A stretch of DNA of 64,000 nt. Origin: a virus. Where the stretch lies: positions 52,183 through 116,182 of the IMG/VR virus record IMGVR_UViG_3300043570_000570; one strand, written 5' to 3'. Of this stretch, positions 18,712 through 64,000 are shown in pieces. The translations under genes were made by a program, and so were the position numbers. The first letter of the stretch is position 1, and every line of letters begins with the position of its first letter. The notes beneath the pieces are model-generated. The model made no database searches. It saw nothing but the letters and a program-made list of their open reading frames with translations, and was not told the origin of the DNA.

Positions 18712-19269
18712 TTATTTAATGTCTTCTGATTTAATCAAAGTGTAGGTAAAAGAATCTCCCTGTAATTTAGCACCTTTCTCGCAGATTGCAAGAAATTTAT
18801 CAAAATCAGCAATCTTTTTAAACACCTGGCAACCATGTGACCAGTCGCCAACTTGCTGACTATCAACTCCTGCTTTGTGAATGTTGATACCAAATACACC
18901 AGTCTCAGTTTTATCTTCTTGGTATACTCCGTCTTTAGTATAGTCACGGAATACAGTAAGAGGAGCTTTCTGCTTAAGACACTTGTATTTACCTTGGTGA
19001 AGACCTACACCATGTGATCCTGGATATTGTCCTGGTTTAACACGAGCAGTTCCACCACCGTTATCTGTGGTACAAGGCCAGATATGGAACTTCCATTCTC
19101 CGCCTTCTTTATAGCTCAAAGTCATCCAATCATCAAATGCATTGGTAACTTTTTGTCCTGTAGCACTATTACGAATACCAATTACATTGATATTAAATTC
19201 TCCGTTCTCGAAGTATTTGTGCCCTTTAGCTTTAACAGCTGCTTCGATTTGTTCTCTAGTAAAACTCAT
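18712..19269 (-). CDS. Endolysin-like peptidoglycan enzyme (L,D-transpeptidase-like catalytic motif)
   Basis: GINIH...WSHGCQV His/Cys motif; next to a holin-like gene. Confidence 0.7.
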   Translation of the reverse strand: MSFTREQIEAAVKAKGHKYFENGEFNINVIGIRNSATGQKVTNAFDDWMTLSYKEGGEWKFHIWPCTTDNGGGTARVKPGQYPGSHGVGLHQGKYKCLKQKAPLTVFRDYTKDGVYQEDKTETGVFGINIHKAGVDSQQVGDWSHGCQVFKKIADFDKFLAICEKGAKLQGDSFTYTLIKSEDIK

Positions 19270-19311: not shown

Positions 19312-19560
19312 TTAATCTTCGCTAGGTGCTTCTGGCTTCTTCATAATCTTCTCAACAGAAGTCAAACCTAAACAACCAAAAGCCAACAAAGCAACTGCAT
19401 CCACCAAAGGAACAGAAGGAGCAAAGTGAGCTTCGGTAAAAGAGTTAGCGTACAATGTAGCGCATAGTGTAACTGTGCATGCTAATCCGCACAATCGTTT
19501 CATGGAGACAACACCCTTCTCATCTTTGAAGAGTCCGCCAATAAAGTTTAATAGTTTCAT
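19312..19560 (-). CDS. Holin-like two-TM protein
   Basis: 82 aa, S.KR motif then two TMs, directly upstream of the lysin. Confidence 0.6.
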   Translation of the reverse strand: MKLLNFIGGLFKDEKGVVSMKRLCGLACTVTLCATLYANSFTEAHFAPSVPLVDAVALLAFGCLGLTSVEKIMKKPEAPSED

Positions 19561-23294: not shown

Positions 23295-23870
23295 TTACTT
23301 CTGAAACCTCAGATAATCTGTAGTACCTGGATCTTCGTTCTTGAAATAATAGACTTCCTTTACTTTACCGTACTTGATAGTCTTTAAAAATCCATCAGGG
23401 ATAGTAGCTCCTGTTGGTAATCTTAAGCTAGTTTTAGAGTAGACCATCTTGATCTCTACCTCAACACTCTGACTCTTAGAAAGCTCTCTTTCTCTTACTT
23501 CTAATAGTCTCCAAGCTCCTCTGTTTAACTTCTCGTGCTGAAGAACACAGTTAAGGTAAGAAAAGGTTTGCCATAAGGTAGGTCTATCACAGTTAAAATC
23601 AGCTGCTGGAGCACAATGTCCCTTATCCCATACATTTCCTTCATAGTCTTTTCCGTCTGAAGTCTTAATAGAGTCGTTAGTGTAGAAGTCCATTCCCTTT
23701 CTAGGATAAGAACCCAAGGGACATTGGACAATGTACCAAACTCGCTTAGGCTGTTGTAAGATCTCTGAGTAAACACAAGAGTATATAGGAGTCTTTACAA
23801 AGACAGAGTCTCTCTGAGAGTAACTAGTACCTAGTACTAGAAAACTTAAAATAAAAAGTAATTGTTTCAT
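23295..23870 (-). CDS. Exported DNA/RNA non-specific endonuclease (NucA/EndoG family)
   Basis: Signal peptide SYS|Q; DKGH active site, TF.YLN, Q...LNRG.W..LE, IPDGF. Confidence 0.9.
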   Translation of the reverse strand: MKQLLFILSFLVLGTSYSQRDSVFVKTPIYSCVYSEILQQPKRVWYIVQCPLGSYPRKGMDFYTNDSIKTSDGKDYEGNVWDKGHCAPAADFNCDRPTLWQTFSYLNCVLQHEKLNRGAWRLLEVRERELSKSQSVEVEIKMVYSKTSLRLPTGATIPDGFLKTIKYGKVKEVYYFKNEDPGTTDYLRFQK

Positions 23871-23897
23871 TGTTTAATTTTTTAGTTGTTTCATTGT

Positions 23898-24065
23898 TTA
23901 ATTAAAAGTGTTTCTGTCTTTCTTAGCAAACGCTTGATCTATAAAAAAAGTTAGACCAAACATAATAATAATAGTCATTGCTGCATTAAAGACGCTTACA
24001 ACATACATCTCTGCTTCTTTAGAAGTTTCTACTACTGATAGTAACGTGGATAAAATTAGTGTCAT
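23898..24065 (-). CDS. Small membrane protein (55 aa)
   Basis: MTLILSTLL...NAAMTIIIMFGLTFFID; ATGA-coupled to the upstream stop; not in ORF track. Confidence 0.55.
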   Translation of the reverse strand: MTLILSTLLSVVETSKEAEMYVVSVFNAAMTIIIMFGLTFFIDQAFAKKDRNTFN

Positions 24066-24646
24066 TTTTTTGAGTCTTTTGAATCTTTTGAATCTTTGGA
24101 GTCTTTTGAATCTGTCATGTGTTTAACTCCCATTATTGTTCCGATAATAGAAAAACAGTTGGTTAGAATAATACCAAACATATTACTCCAGGTACTCTCG
24201 ATGATCTTAGAGTCTAGTCCTCTGCTTAGTACGAAAAGATAAAGTACAGTAGTAAGTATACAAACAGCACCTACAGCTCCCAAAGCTACCTTTACTATCA
24301 AACCAATAAGCTCAAACTGGGTTTTTTTCTGAAGTGTTTCTAAATCATCAACTGCCAATTCTCTCAACTTCTCAGACTCAGACAAAGCCTGCTTTAGTTC
24401 AAGCATTAGTTTTTCTTTCTCTGCTTGGCTCTCTATTAGGTCTTTGTTCTGGGACTGTACTTGCTTAGTTACTTCTAGTCTTTTTCTACGAGTGTCTTGG
24501 TCTTTGGTCTTAGCCTCGTCTAAGTAGTCTTGAAAGTTTTTATCCTGAGTTTTTACTACCTTAAGTAAGTTTCCCTCTAATGCAATCTTCTTAGATTTGT
24601 AGAGGGAGACAAGAGAGCTTTCAATATCTTTACCAAAGGATATCAC
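24062..24646 (-). CDS. Coiled-coil plus two-TM membrane protein in the two-component operon
   Basis: GTG start abutting the receiver stop; C-terminal (KDS)n tandem repeat. Confidence 0.7.
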   Translation of the reverse strand: MISFGKDIESSLVSLYKSKKIALEGNLLKVVKTQDKNFQDYLDEAKTKDQDTRRKRLEVTKQVQSQNKDLIESQAEKEKLMLELKQALSESEKLRELAVDDLETLQKKTQFELIGLIVKVALGAVGAVCILTTVLYLFVLSRGLDSKIIESTWSNMFGIILTNCFSIIGTIMGVKHMTDSKDSKDSKDSKDSKK

Positions 24647-25084
24647 TTACTTATATACTTTAAAGGAAGCAGTTTTATTCTTATACCCCTCATAGTCCTT
24701 ACGAAAAGATTCTAGTCTAGGTTCAATCTCATCTGACTTGATGATCCAGAACTGAGCACCTACAGCTTTTGCTTTTTCTATTTCTTGTTTATCATCAGAA
24801 CTAGAAATAATCCCTATCACCACTCCGTTGCCGTACTCAAAGTTAATCTTACGAATCAACTCTATGCCGTCAAAAGAAGAACCAATAATATTAAGGTCTA
24901 CAAAAACGCATTCAGGTCTTTCATCTGCAGGTCCTTCAACAAACCATCTCTTAAACAATCTATCAGCTTCATCAGAAGAAGTTAGAGTTTGCAGAGAAAG
25001 AGTAATGTCTAATAAGCTACAAGAATCCTCAAACACTAAGTGAAAAAGGTCTTCGTCATCTACGAGTAATATTGAGTCTATCAT
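24647..25084 (-). CDS. Single-domain response regulator (CheY-like receiver)
   Basis: ILLVDDE, phospho-Asp in VFVDLN, DGIEL, ISSS, GA..WIIK; no output domain. Confidence 0.9.
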   Translation of the reverse strand: MIDSILLVDDEDLFHLVFEDSCSLLDITLSLQTLTSSDEADRLFKRWFVEGPADERPECVFVDLNIIGSSFDGIELIRKINFEYGNGVVIGIISSSDDKQEIEKAKAVGAQFWIIKSDEIEPRLESFRKDYEGYKNKTASFKVYK

Positions 25085-25091
25085 ATTTTGT

Positions 25092-26294
25092 TTATTTTAC
25101 TTTTATCTTAAGTTTAGTTCCTGTTTCTGGTTCTTCTAGTTTCTCAGCTGTTACTTCAAACTTATGTTCTTCCATAATAGCTGTACATATGTTTAACCCT
25201 AGTCCTGTACCTGCCTCTGTCTGACCTTCTTTCCTCTTATAAGGCTTAGACCACTGTACAAAATCTTCCTGAGACATTCCCCTTCCATTATCTTCAATAA
25301 CTAAAAAATTCCCTTCAGCAAAAATACGTACTAACTTAGTGCTAGAGTCGTTATATTTTAAACCGTTTCTTATTAAATTATCAATCGCTGTACAGAACAA
25401 AGATTCGTTTACTTCAATCTCAGGTAACTCTTCAATAACTACTTGCTTCTCGTAAGAAGTAGAAGATAGGTAGCTGTGTAGAATGTCTTTTAGATTGTGT
25501 TGCTGAACCTCTAAGTGAGCATCTTGCTTAACCAAGTTAGTAAACTCTTTAACTCCGTTATAAACCTTTTGAGTGTGAATCAATCCTTCTGTAATCATTC
25601 TTAGCGGAGCATCTATCTTTAACTCTTTAATCTGCTCTTCAGTCAGTCTTCTTTTTAAGGAAGAAAGTCCCCTAGGAATATAAGTGTTAATTCCTGAGTG
25701 CATATCATGTCTTAAAATCTTAGCAGCATGTTCCAAATAGGAATTCTTTTTAGCAACCTCTGCCTCAATTCTCTTTTTCTCAGTAATCTCCGTAGCAATT
25801 AAAAGAATTTTATAAACCTCTCCGTAAGGATCTTTAATAGGATTGAAGTTTCCATAAAGCCAAGTATTGCCAAACTCATACTCTCCTTGCTTGAAATAGC
25901 CTATTCTTAAATGTGTCCAGAACTCTAACCAATCTCTCTTAGAAGAGTTGTCTAACTCCCTATGACTTTTAACCTCACCAAATATTCGCTTAAACCTGTC
26001 ATTCATACTTAACACTTCTCCATAAGTATCAAACTCTACTAGTAAGTTAGAATTATTAATTGCTTTAAAAGTAGCATCTACACTCTGAAACTTATACCTA
26101 GCTCTCCTTACAAACTCTATAGCAGGATAAAAGAAAAAAGGTAAAAACCCTACTATACACCAATACCCTACTAAATCCCGCTGGTAACTAGAATCTGTGT
26201 ACTTGAAAACAATAGCACTCTGAAAACTTAAATAAGCCAACATTATCACAGAAGCAATAACAACTGATACCTTAGACCTTATACTTAGTTTCAT
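25092..26294 (-). CDS. Membrane sensor histidine kinase (2 TM, PAS/PAC-like, HisKA, HATPase)
   Basis: H-box LRHDM, N-box NLIRNGLKY, G1 EDNGRGM, G2 GTGLGL. Confidence 0.92.
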   Translation of the reverse strand: MKLSIRSKVSVVIASVIMLAYLSFQSAIVFKYTDSSYQRDLVGYWCIVGFLPFFFYPAIEFVRRARYKFQSVDATFKAINNSNLLVEFDTYGEVLSMNDRFKRIFGEVKSHRELDNSSKRDWLEFWTHLRIGYFKQGEYEFGNTWLYGNFNPIKDPYGEVYKILLIATEITEKKRIEAEVAKKNSYLEHAAKILRHDMHSGINTYIPRGLSSLKRRLTEEQIKELKIDAPLRMITEGLIHTQKVYNGVKEFTNLVKQDAHLEVQQHNLKDILHSYLSSTSYEKQVVIEELPEIEVNESLFCTAIDNLIRNGLKYNDSSTKLVRIFAEGNFLVIEDNGRGMSQEDFVQWSKPYKRKEGQTEAGTGLGLNICTAIMEEHKFEVTAEKLEEPETGTKLKIKVK

Positions 26295-26367
26295 CTTTTA
26301 AAGTTAATTGGATGACACAAATATAAGCTAACTTTAAATAAATCAAAGTCTTGTCTCTGAAAACTTA

Positions 26368-26570
26368 TCTCCCCAAAATTTTTAGACCCCCCATCCCAAA
26401 ATTTCTCCCAAAATTTTTTCTAAAATTTTTAGACCCCTAAAATTTTTTATGTTCATAGGAGGGTGGGACCAAAATTTTATACCCCCGTCAACTTGATTAT
26501 ATCTATATGAGGGTGGGGGACACCAATTTAACATACCCCATCCCAAAATTGGCGCTAGGGGTACCCCCTA
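26368..26570. repeat. Repeated CC(C)AAAATTT(T) / C-tract cluster at the late/early strand switch
   Basis: Several AAAATTT units, two AAAATTTTTAGACCCC, two CCCCATCCCAAAATT and G/C runs in a divergent intergenic region. Confidence 0.6.
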
Positions 26571-61718: not shown

Positions 61719-63053
61719 TTATTTAAAGCGAATATAAAACGAATATATTAAATCCGTATCTTTTTCTACTAAATCAAATGAAACTCCTGGATATCCTGGA
61801 CCAAAGTTATTCATTACCCACTTAGAAGAGCCATACATAGAGAGAACATTACGGTATCTAAACTTATAGACTTGTTGCATACTCTCTGTATGTAAGTCTC
61901 CTTTTACTATCGAAATATTTTTATTCTCTCCTAGACCATGGTGATCTATGTATTTATTAAGGAAATTTTCTGCTTTTTCTGTTAAGAAAAGGGGAAGACC
62001 ATGCTTAAGATCCTCAGAATCTTTGCCATGAGTAAAGATAAACGTGTGTTTGCCATAATCAAAATGTTCTAAAAACTTCTCCATTATCGTTACTTTGATA
62101 AAAGGATAAGCTGTATTTAAATAAAGAGTGAGTGCTTGATTTGTAATATAACCAAAGGAACCTGAGTGGTTGTCCTCTGTCTGCATAATTGCATGAATGT
62201 TATTTGCAAGATTCTTTTCTTGCAATTCATCGAAAAATCTTTTGTGAGCATAAAGGTAAGTCATAAAAGACTCCTTGTTGTTCATGTTTTGAGGTAGTTG
62301 GTGTCCTCCTCTAGTAGTTAAGCCACTCCAACCATCTAATGAATCTCCTAAATCACAAATAAAAAGATCTTCTAGTCTTCCGTAGATCTTTACTTGCTTC
62401 TCTATCTCTTCTAATACTCTCATCATTCTTACTTCGAAGATGTCTTCGTTGTATTCGTTGTTGAAAATAGAGTTAGGGTGAGTAAGCGCTCCTACATGCT
62501 TGTCACTCATATAGACAAATAAAGCCCTTTTAGAGGCCACAGGAGTCTTCTTAGGAGTAGGGCAAGGACTTATGTTAGATTCTAAGAAAACCTCTCTTAG
62601 AACGGCTTCTATGTCTTCAGGTAAACTATCCTCAGGCTTTATAGAAGCAAATAAGGCTGACACTAGCCAACCTGATTGTTTTTCTTTACTCCAATACTGT
62701 ACTAATCTCCACTTAGTAGTATCTATTTTGTGGATCTTAATAATCTCTTCAGCAGATCTAGGTTGCTCAGAGACTAGTTTAGATACTTCTAGAGTACCTT
62801 TATCTAAGTTCTCATCGTAAGTTCCTAGAGTATGGTTAGACAACACAGGAGAAGTAGCAGTTGGCTGATATAAAGAATCCTCCCTAAGTAGATGAGCCAT
62901 TGCTGTTCTTTTTAAGTCACGAACTCTTTTTCCTCTTAGAAGATTGTTTATTTCTGGCTGATAGTTGAAGCGGATAGCAACTTCAACAGCTGTCTCGGTT
63001 GTATTTGGATTGTCAATGTAGTATTGAACAATCTGTTTAGAGATTGGGATCAT
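61719..63053 (-). CDS. Calcineurin-like metallophosphoesterase
   Basis: SDKHVG, LGDSLDG, NH, THG, GDLH. Confidence 0.8.
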   Translation of the reverse strand: MIPISKQIVQYYIDNPNTTETAVEVAIRFNYQPEINNLLRGKRVRDLKRTAMAHLLREDSLYQPTATSPVLSNHTLGTYDENLDKGTLEVSKLVSEQPRSAEEIIKIHKIDTTKWRLVQYWSKEKQSGWLVSALFASIKPEDSLPEDIEAVLREVFLESNISPCPTPKKTPVASKRALFVYMSDKHVGALTHPNSIFNNEYNEDIFEVRMMRVLEEIEKQVKIYGRLEDLFICDLGDSLDGWSGLTTRGGHQLPQNMNNKESFMTYLYAHKRFFDELQEKNLANNIHAIMQTEDNHSGSFGYITNQALTLYLNTAYPFIKVTIMEKFLEHFDYGKHTFIFTHGKDSEDLKHGLPLFLTEKAENFLNKYIDHHGLGENKNISIVKGDLHTESMQQVYKFRYRNVLSMYGSSKWVMNNFGPGYPGVSFDLVEKDTDLIYSFYIRFK

Positions 63054-63063
63054 AGGCAGAGAG

Positions 63064-63423
63064 TTAAAGTATTAACCCTATGGTTAACAAAGCTATAGCA
63101 ATTAATCCACCTTTCAAAACATTTTTAAGTGTTTTAATAGTTTCTGCTTGAGATTTAACTTTAGTATCTAAGCGAACTATCTCTACTTTAGCGGTATCTA
63201 GAGCTAATCTAAAGTTAGGAATAATAGAATCTTTATATAAAGATAACTGTACACTGTCAGTCTTAACAATTTTTTTAAGACTTACTACTCTCTCACGTGC
63301 TTGAATTCCCTTAAGGAATTCGTTATTCAACTCCTTTAGCGGTAAGCTGTCTAGAGATTGTGAGTAGATACTTTGTGCCGTCAATATCAGGCATAGTGTC
63401 AATAGCGATTTGAATGGTGTCAT
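63064..63423 (-). CDS. Spanin-like exported coiled-coil protein with C-terminal TM
   Basis: Signal-like N-terminus, coiled coil, hydrophobic C-terminus; overlaps the upstream gene. Confidence 0.5.
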   Translation of the reverse strand: MTPFKSLLTLCLILTAQSIYSQSLDSLPLKELNNEFLKGIQARERVVSLKKIVKTDSVQLSLYKDSIIPNFRLALDTAKVEIVRLDTKVKSQAETIKTLKNVLKGGLIAIALLTIGLIL

Positions 63424-63640
63424 ACTTTAAGGTGATTTTTTCGTAAGTTCTATACTCTTCGTGTTTTATGTGCTCTAAGGAGTCTATCTTCTCAAAGTAA
63501 GTATCATTTGCTTTATCAATAGAATCTATAAAAGAGATTACTTGATTGGTGTCTTGTTCTTGTACGTACTCATACCTGTATAAAAGGTAGACAATAGCAA
63601 AGAAGAAGATAAAGTTAAGTTTAATCGAGAGGTTTTTCAT
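63323..63640 (-). CDS. Spanin-like (inner membrane) protein
   Basis: N-terminal TM plus coiled coil, after the holin. Confidence 0.5.
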   Translation of the reverse strand: MKNLSIKLNFIFFFAIVYLLYRYEYVQEQDTNQVISFIDSIDKANDTYFEKIDSLEHIKHEEYRTYEKITLKYDTIQIAIDTMPDIDGTKYLLTISRQLTAKGVE

Positions 63641-64000
63641 TATCGTGCTTGAATTTGTGTTGATCTATCTTTTCTAAAATTTGAGAGAGTACACTGTTGT
63701 CTATGATTCCTACTGTGTGAGCATTTTTAAGCGCACTTATCAGCTGAAAAACAATAAAGGGAGCACATAAAGTTTCGCTTAGCCAAAAAGTTCCATCAAA
63801 CCCCTTCTCAATCATCAAGACACCCGTAAGTATAATTACCCAAGCAAACAAAGTCTGAAGTACCTTAAGTGCTTTTCTAGTTTGAAAACCAATCTTTTTA
63901 GTTCCTGCCCATACCCCAAAAAATCCATCTATAAACACAACAGCAACTACAGCTAAGTACTGTTCAGCATTATCTGCTCCTAGATTAAGGAAGTAAGCTC
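63621..64000 (-). CDS. Phage holin family protein (5' end outside window)
   Basis: Frame open to the window edge (...QYLAVVAVVFIDGFFGV); several TMs; D.FFG and IS.LKN..G motifs. Confidence 0.7.
   Translation of the reverse strand, partial: AYFLNLGADNAEQYLAVVAVVFIDGFFGVWAGTKKIGFQTRKALKVLQTLFAWVIILTGVLMIEKGFDGTFWLSETLCAPFIVFQLISALKNAHTVGIIDNSVLSQILEKIDQHKFKHDNEKPLD

Follow-up and report, generated by a model that had tools for sequence, protein, structure and literature searches.

We describe here a five-gene operon within a 64,000-nucleotide stretch of viral DNA (hereafter, the window), which comprises bases 52183-116182 of IMG/VR record IMGVR_UViG_3300043570_000570, a genome of 116,182 bp with an estimated completeness of 98%. 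The operon consists of five tightly spaced open reading frames (ORFs), all on the minus strand, and begins 212 bp from a divergently transcribed gene. The first ORF (25092-26294) encodes a 400-aa sensor histidine kinase (HK) with a HATPase_c domain and H, N, G1 and G2 boxes; it is followed by a 145-aa receiver (RR; 24647-25084) that has a near-cutoff Response_reg match, the associated active-site residues, and no output domain. Next comes a 194-aa membrane protein with a coiled coil and two transmembrane (TM) helices (24062-24646; hereafter, CC), the GTG start codon of which abuts the RR stop codon. The last two ORFs specify a 55-aa single-TM peptide (23898-24065), whose start overlaps the CC stop codon, and a 191-aa nuclease (23295-23870), assigned from its Pfam match and active site to the Endonuclease_NS (beta-beta-alpha-Me) family. 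A preliminary description of this DNA, prepared from the sequence alone, had listed these five co-oriented and tightly coupled ORFs, all of which are present, and had treated them as one functional unit ending in the nuclease. We find that the conserved unit is instead the HK-RR-CC trio, and we give about an even chance to the interpretation that its role is the signal-dependent control of lysis or membrane permeabilisation.

The kinase begins with two TM helices joined by an outer loop of ~12 aa, followed by a PAS-like domain, a probable DHp domain that carries His196, and the HATPase_c domain (PF02518; 48.9 bits against a Pfam cutoff of 26.4; E 1e-12). Pfam returned no HisKA match for this protein; phmmer aligns its residues 195-384 to HK853 (PDB: 3dge/2c2a), from the DHp domain of HK853 onward. 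The H-box LRHDMHSGINTY, with His196, is invariant in 94 of 94 unique kinases, as are the N, G1 and G2 boxes (DNLIRNGLKYN, DNGRG and GxGLGL). The PAS match of the window's kinase is weak (PAS_8, E 0.06), whereas homologous kinases with two TM helices and a PAS domain give strong ones (PAS_9, 1e-12; PAS_3, 9e-13); a sensor kinase with intact boxes and a PAS-like domain is what had first been described. Comparison with the nearest relatives gives dN/dS values of 0.07-0.10 for the kinase. In cultured phages, tblastn with this protein returned only weak, partial HATPase matches.

The sensor part of the kinase is exchanged between clades: it may be GAF+PAS+PAS without TM helices, PAS+PAS, two TM helices with PAS+PAS, two TM helices with one PAS (as in the window), or TM helices only. 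The kinase core remains constant throughout, and so do RR and CC. Because the sensor modules of the family are mostly cytoplasmic PAS and GAF domains, an envelope cue, which had been suggested initially alongside a metabolic one, is less likely than a cytoplasmic one. In 10 dereplicated groups, the gene immediately upstream of the short or two-TM kinases always specifies a single-TM protein of 62-94 aa (cluster 6; L054:351-551 and homologs), perhaps an antiholin or a membrane co-sensor. Separately, four dereplicated groups have, one to three genes 5' of the kinase, a gene for a calcineurin-like metallophosphoesterase (L108:3012-3698 and three other lineages; Metallophos, E 1e-16).

The receiver scores 29.9 bits against Response_reg (PF00072), just below the cutoff of 30.2, and nearly all of its homologs have precomputed Pfam matches. 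Its active-site quintet (D9/D10/E11, D63, S94-96 and K116) is invariant in 74 of 74 unique sequences, in agreement with the earlier description of a receiver that has all of its catalytic residues and lacks an output domain; a C-terminal tail of ~20 aa is also conserved. The best PDB relative is the receiver 3ilh (E 2.6e-4). A profile search of the PDB gave a designed TIM barrel as the only match, which we judged to be spurious. RR is the best conserved gene of the trio, with an across-clade identity of 72-94%, versus 52-81% for HK and 42-94% for CC.

These features align the phage proteins with classical HisKA systems that use single-domain receivers (CheA/CheY-FliM; DivJ-PleC/DivK): both have the same H/N/G1/G2 type of kinase, a full receiver pocket and exchangeable PAS/GAF sensors, and in the classical systems the output is by protein contact rather than DNA binding. 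The differences are that the trio resides on lytic-type phages, that its receiver is divergent, and that the presumed target is CC, a virus-only protein without known relatives.

Conservation of the HK-RR-CC trio

Scanning IMG/VR with the kinase identified 55 loci, to which a subsequent scan, with a CC-containing protein, added 80; all ORFs in these loci were labelled with hidden Markov models built from our own alignments. HK, RR and CC are strictly contiguous in 98 of 137 related viral loci, and most of the remainder have a second kinase, one or two inserted genes for membrane proteins, or a cut at the contig end. Across the three genes, dN/dS relative to the nearest relatives is 0.04-0.10, which shows that they are under purifying selection. 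The complete HK-RR pair that the preliminary description had reported in a phage is thus a conserved one, with invariant catalytic residues.

The trio is effectively phage-restricted, since RR was found in only two contigs of metagenome-assembled genomes (MAGs) among 185,579 species genomes, and the Atlas clusters that contain CC are 100% viral; the trio had been put forward earlier as something to compare between phages and bacteria, and it is in viral loci that it is kept. In lytic phages, HK-RR pairs had been called unusual; this is true of cultured phages (tblastn with RR found no homolog among the 50,697 INPHARED phage records) but not of uncultured ones: IMG/VR has at least 251 stretches with a match to the CC half, and metagenomes contain thousands of near-identical receivers.

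Of the two MAG contigs, one (L057; Verrucomicrobia MAG contig WBXG01000047.1, 13.5 kb) encodes kinases of 546 and 407 aa with a 245-aa exported protein between them, then RR and CC, with topoisomerase-sized genes beyond; it is probably a phage contig that was mis-binned into the MAG. The other (L058:7668-8995; Alphaproteobacteria MAG contig CBCXTS010000020.1) has a 93-aa kinase fragment, a receiver split into 98 and 65 aa, and a CC split into 98 and 90 aa, and this degraded trio represents either a decaying copy or sequencing frameshifts. Within the viral set, L038 and L039 (IMGVR_UViG_3300044568_006268, 129 kb; IMGVR_UViG_3300044568_003163, 294 kb) present the same locus at identical coordinates, 93964-107019; the longer L039 record may be a concatenated or duplicated assembly.

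The two genes that complete the operon have a much narrower distribution. Homologs of the 55-aa TM peptide directly follow CC in only two clades; we regard it as a clade-specific membrane partner. As to the nuclease, its match to Endonuclease_NS is strong (PF01223; 67.7 bits against a cutoff of 23), its His85 (DKGH; catalytic (K/R)GH) and Mg-binding Asn107 align to those of EXOG, EndoG and the Serratia nuclease, and its N-terminus, as read by eye, is a hydrophobic signal-like segment followed by Gln; export is predicted on this basis, in line with the NucA-type nuclease with a signal peptide that was described initially. It shares the catalytic His and Asn with characterised Endonuclease_NS enzymes (Serratia nuclease, EndoG/EXOG, NucA), and, as predicted, export with the Serratia nuclease; it differs from them in being shorter, phage-borne, and placed at the end of a signalling or lysis block. 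The nuclease gene is present in just 2 of the 46 lineages to which the trio loci dereplicate, namely the window's own clade (group 2) and L060. In the latter it overlaps the end of a GH19 endolysin gene, which gives it the look of a lysis-cassette accessory. We consider the nuclease to be clade-specific accessory cargo that lies outside the signalling core, and that is probably released or active at lysis; nothing points to the destruction of incoming DNA that had been proposed for it.

The CC membrane protein, its sensor fusions and its predicted contact with the receiver

CC is built from a small N-terminal domain (LEGNxLK), a basic helix (RRKRLEVTKQVQxQN), the coiled coil, TM1, a short loop, TM2 and a Lys-rich tail. 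The coiled coil is continuous with TM1 and tolerates insertions of 0-55 residues. TM2 is polar and nearly invariant (STWSNMFGILLTNxFSIIGTIMGVK), and contains a GxxxG motif. An AlphaFold2 model (pLDDT 77) depicts a continuous helix from residue 36 to 142, running into TM1, and then a second helix (147-191) that completes a hairpin. From the charge distribution only, both termini are predicted to be inside (N-in/C-in). A CC profile retrieved 259 clusters from 1.84 billion representative proteins. The label 'GLE1-like' that the Atlas attaches to the CC clusters is an automatic coiled-coil label, which we set aside as uninformative.

The decisive finding of this profile search is a set of variants in which the coiled coil and TM hairpin of CC are fused directly to a sensor: GAF (P0155), PAS-PAS (P0173) or PAS (P0180). 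By eye, the PAS domains of P0173 lack a LOV-type cysteine motif. In the loci that contain GAF-hairpin fusions (L059-L061), there is no HK or RR within 6 kb. Bearing in mind that these GAF and PAS domains are joined to the hairpin in phages without the two-component partners, we propose that the hairpin is an output that sensors can drive directly.

The opposite end of CC takes part in fusions of a different kind. In P0250, P0252, P0258 and P0261, the N-terminal domain and coiled coil precede a HisKA-HATPase core; used in this way as the N-terminal module of kinases, the CC N-terminal domain behaves as an input module, and in the trio it is most plausibly the site that receives the phosphorylated receiver. 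As for the genomic context of these kinases, viral scans with P0250, P0258 and P0261 gave either nothing or ordinary CC genes, and a metagenome scan for such fusions returned generic kinases only. A further protein (P0192; 348 aa) combines the N-terminal domain and the coiled coil of CC with a FecCD-type ABC permease, perhaps as a third type of output, perhaps through chimeric assembly.

The preliminary description had suggested modelling the receiver together with the 194-aa protein. The predicted complex of RR with CC residues 1-112 has an ipSAE of 0.44, compared to 0.01 for the best control; the ipSAE mark that we applied is passed by 58 of 80 solved complexes and by 2 of 110 mismatched pairs, but only 7 of the 80 solved complexes, and both of the passing mismatches, passed it with values of 0.60 or under. 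The prediction runs showed 100% contact agreement, with a partner pLDDT of at least 85. These models lend weak support to RR-CC binding. Taken together with the fixed HK-RR-CC order at ~100 loci and the sensor-hairpin fusions, they make the membrane protein the most likely target of the stand-alone receiver, as had been supposed from the outset.

Proximity to lysis genes and the position of the window's operon

We examined the genes that surround the trio in the 46 lineages, and considered a gene to be near if it lay within four genes of the module. An endolysin (of four or five types) or a holin is near in 29 of the 46 lineages, often just before the kinase or after CC. The neighbours include Phage_holin_4_1 and endolysins of the PG_binding_1+Amidase_2, PG_binding_1+GH19, Peptidase_M15_3 and cl4 types, the last of which is sometimes fused to PG_binding_1. 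Among near slots, 40 of 346 are taken by lysis genes; among far slots, 7 of 357 are (odds ratio 6.5; Fisher p 2e-7, a value that overstates independence, because the 46 lineages are related to each other). The phages with GAF-hairpin fusions conform to this pattern: in L060 and L061, an endolysin is 2-3 genes away. The lysin type has been replaced repeatedly without loss of this adjacency, which speaks for a functional link. Thus, lysis timing, which had been raised earlier as one possibility, emerges as the best-supported role, with relatives of the window holding the trio inside or beside lysis cassettes.

Several observations, in addition to the relatedness of the lineages, weigh against this interpretation. 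No lysis gene was recognised within four genes in 17 of the 46 groups, many of whose loci are, however, short. In the window itself, lysis genes are remote from the trio, with the closest lysin-like gene ten genes off and the holin at a distance of ~37 kb. CC has no holin family match in Pfam, PHROGs or NCBIfam, and a Foldseek search of the PDB with the CC model gave nothing below E 1, i.e., no structural neighbour. The complex prediction described above is weak, and the very strong conservation of the receiver might reflect contact with a conserved protein of the host. Finally, accessory genes are known to accumulate around lysis genes, and mere adjacency could therefore be passive.

The distance between operon and holin in the window is best understood by comparison with its closest relatives. 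In L002-L010, the five-gene block directly follows a pair of genes for a holin and a protein that we term cl12. In the window, this pair consists of a Phage_holin_4_1-type holin (63633-63995, minus strand, cut by the contig end), recognised by its family match, and cl12 (63166-63465, minus strand), which has a signal sequence and a C-terminal TM helix and was identified by neighbour clustering. Here, the slot between cl12 and cl21 that holds the whole HK-RR-CC-TM peptide-nuclease block in the closest relatives is occupied by a gene for a 444-aa exonuclease-like protein (61719-63053, minus strand; phrog_22398, with weaker matches to DNA-repair exonuclease PHROGs). The block itself stands at the head of the tail-fibre operon, near the early region, with an upstream region that is new relative to these relatives. 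With these alternate positions, the block behaves as a movable cassette, and the window's copy is the least informative about linkage to lysis, which is the chief reason to weigh the alternatives discussed below.

The lysin-like gene nearest to the window's trio, ten genes downstream, encodes a 185-aa putative endolysin of the cl4 type (18712-19269, minus strand) that matches phrog_3000 and phrog_33083 ('endolysin'), and is fused to PG_binding_1 in relatives. Beside it lies a gene for an 82-aa single-TM protein (cluster cl11; 19315-19560, minus strand), the partner gene of the cl4-type lysin in relatives; a family search with this protein gave no match, and it is a possible candidate for the holin of the phage's distal lysis pair. 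Pfam and NCBIfam have no family for the cl4-type domain (also L043:3589-4386), the motif of which is DVNIVGVRN...KVTNxFDD; it appears to be a catalytic domain of endolysins that has yet to be catalogued.

The holin-cl12 pair is found on the minus strand at both ends of the record (genome G000 1-841, and window 63213-64000, equivalent to genome 115395-116182), each copy being cut by the contig end. The copy at the start has 92-95% DNA identity to L003, L005 and L007, and that at the end only ~73%. This could be a true duplication, or two alleles of a single locus that the assembler joined across a circular or permuted genome.

The viral origin of the window is evident from its genes for a portal, large terminase and major head protein (all with PHROG matches) and a DNA polymerase. 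Over >90% of its length, the large terminase is 30-39% identical to its counterparts in Leptolyngbya phage Lbo-JY46, Cellulophaga phages phi4:1 and phi17:2, and crAss-like phages; judged by its related large terminase, portal and capsid genes, the genome is placed in a crAss-like/Cellulophaga phi4:1-like lineage. Megablast of the region against the 50,697 phage records gave no match. DNA of this phage was found repeatedly in lake-water metagenomes from 2020-2024, and in four independent lake-water runs both operon ends are spanned by contigs that show zero differences, which establishes that the arrangement is real.

Upstream of the kinase, the promoter-like box TATATTTG (26318-26325, minus strand) listed in the preliminary description is present; 23 nt separate it from the ATG, and another 18 nt upstream of it there is a TTTG. 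The box fits the Bacteroidota -7 consensus TAnnTTTG; since this motif is not enriched (85 occurrences in the window versus 81 expected from shuffled sequence), the box is a candidate promoter by consensus match only. A scan for sigma-70 promoters and terminators yielded no more sites than shuffled sequence. Elsewhere in the spacer between the kinase and the divergent gene (26370-26445, minus-strand reading), GGGGTCTAAAAATTTT(G/A) occurs as two to three direct repeats with A/T-rich runs between them; these may be an operator or a phage promoter element.

A proposed relay from kinase to membrane, and its alternatives

We hypothesize that these proteins act as follows. The kinase would read a mostly cytoplasmic cue through its exchangeable PAS/GAF modules or, in some clades, through its TM helices, and would phosphorylate the single-domain receiver. 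The phosphorylated receiver would then dock on the small N-terminal domain of CC, and the signal would run along the rigid coiled coil into TM1, so as to alter the state of the two-helix hairpin. Most likely, the hairpin would promote or delay membrane permeabilisation, and the time of lysis would thus be set by the state of the infected cell. Phosphotransfer, RR-CC binding, the membrane effect itself, its direction (trigger or brake) and the nature of the signal are all inferred.

A narrower and more tentative version of this proposal is that CC is itself a signal-gated holin or antiholin, opened or held shut by the phosphorelay or by a fused GAF/PAS sensor. Class II holins and pinholins (such as S21) have two TM helices, an N-in/C-in topology and a charged C-terminal tail. 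CC is similar in having two TM helices with a predicted N-in/C-in orientation, a polar TM2 with GxxxG, a Lys-rich tail, and proximity to endolysins in relatives; there is, however, no detectable homology between CC and class II holins. We are aware of no described holin with a cytoplasmic part like that of CC, in which the N-terminal domain and coiled coil span 110-165 aa.

In its logic, such a mechanism is closest to known lysis inhibition and to LytSR/LytST control, to neither of which the trio is homologous. T4 performs lysis inhibition with the holin T and the antiholins RI and RIII (PMC11413866), and lysis inhibition is also described for the Vibrio phage ICP1 (PMC7182436). As in our proposal, the phage itself encodes a means of sensing that shifts lysis timing, acting through membrane proteins whose genes lie with those for lysis. 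There is no sequence relationship; T4 senses superinfection by means of a periplasmic antiholin and without phosphorylation, whereas the trio has as its input a kinase with cytoplasmic PAS or GAF sensors and a phospho-receiver. In bacteria, LytSR/LytST control the holin-like/antiholin-like Cid/Lrg proteins (PMC3507848), and this is likewise a two-component system with a holin-like membrane-protein output, although it is not homologous to the trio beyond the generic domains of two-component systems. LytR/LytT is a DNA-binding transcription regulator of a cellular operon; as the phage receiver has no DNA-binding domain, any control that it exerts would be post-translational. In the cultured, lytic Alteromonas myovirus V22, the auxiliary gene CDS-30 is CheY-like and lies two genes from the amidase CDS-28 (PMC7289586), that is, a free receiver-type gene near a cell-wall amidase. 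In contrast to the trio, no kinase or CC partner is reported for it, and it has no detectable homology to our receiver in the tblastn search of phage records.

The foremost alternative, which we regard as unlikely, is that the relay acts on the membrane for some purpose apart from lysis by the phage itself: superinfection exclusion or immunity, a depolarising effector, or the modulation of host transport or energy. CC might, for example, block entry of the DNA of other phages, or depolarise the membrane conditionally, and its adjacency to lysis genes would then reflect an accessory hot spot. Many exclusion proteins are small, membrane-located and encoded close to lysis genes. The module is movable, being next to holin-cl12 in some phages and near the early region and tail-fibre genes in the window, and both the 17 groups without a recognised lysis neighbour and the absence of CC from holin families also fit this alternative. 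Yet the adjacency outlasts several replacements of the endolysin type, and it holds for the one-component GAF-hairpin variants as well, so a functional link explains it more easily than a hot spot does; moreover, PADLOC, including its Detocs models, gave no match for any module protein or variant.

A second alternative is still less probable: the receiver would act mainly on the host, by cross-talk with its two-component, motility or secretion systems or as a phosphate sink, with CC being an accessory anchor or an unrelated neighbour. That RR is better conserved than HK and CC fits the constraint expected of a conserved external partner. Stand-alone receivers are also known to serve as phosphate buffers, as in Detocs, a bacterial anti-phage system of three proteins (DtcA/DtcB/DtcC) in which the effector carries a receiver domain and the free receiver, DtcB, is a phosphate buffer; some of the effectors are transmembrane (bioRxiv 10.1101/2023.01.24.525353). 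The layout of kinase, stand-alone receiver and effector is the same in the trio, but CC has no receiver domain, and the lack of any Detocs match was noted above. Furthermore, the phage supplies its own kinase, its receiver is always followed by CC, and the sensor-hairpin fusions without HK or RR place the hairpin, rather than a host protein, at the end of the pathway.

Finally, a five-gene system in which an envelope cue is relayed to the membrane protein and on to an exported nuclease that attacks incoming or extracellular DNA is highly improbable: the genes are co-oriented and tightly spaced in the window and seven close relatives, and the nuclease combines an intact active site with a predicted export signal, but it is absent from 44 of the 46 trio lineages, its only other copy overlaps an endolysin gene, the sensors are mainly cytoplasmic, and nothing links receiver phosphorylation to its export or activity.

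Returning to the control of lysis or permeabilisation by the trio, the parts are ordinary two-component domains, and their arrangement with a virus-only membrane effector is undescribed in the literature that we found; our search yielded no account of two-component signalling encoded in a phage lysis cassette, nor of a sensor-fused holin. To our knowledge, T4-type lysis inhibition and a few analogues are the only plastic lysis clocks that are well understood. The timing of lysis sets phage burst size and fitness. If our proposal is correct, many environmental phages would sense host physiology and respond to it post-translationally, and the trio would constitute a compact and modular switch from sensor to membrane, and a new class of output for single-domain receivers. 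On the narrower version, with CC itself as the gated holin or antiholin, a large group of uncultured aquatic phages would set the latent period by a metabolite, redox or energy signal of the infected cell, by means of a programmable lysis clock with exchangeable sensors. The sensor-hairpin fusions make our proposal testable in heterologous hosts, without culture of the phages.

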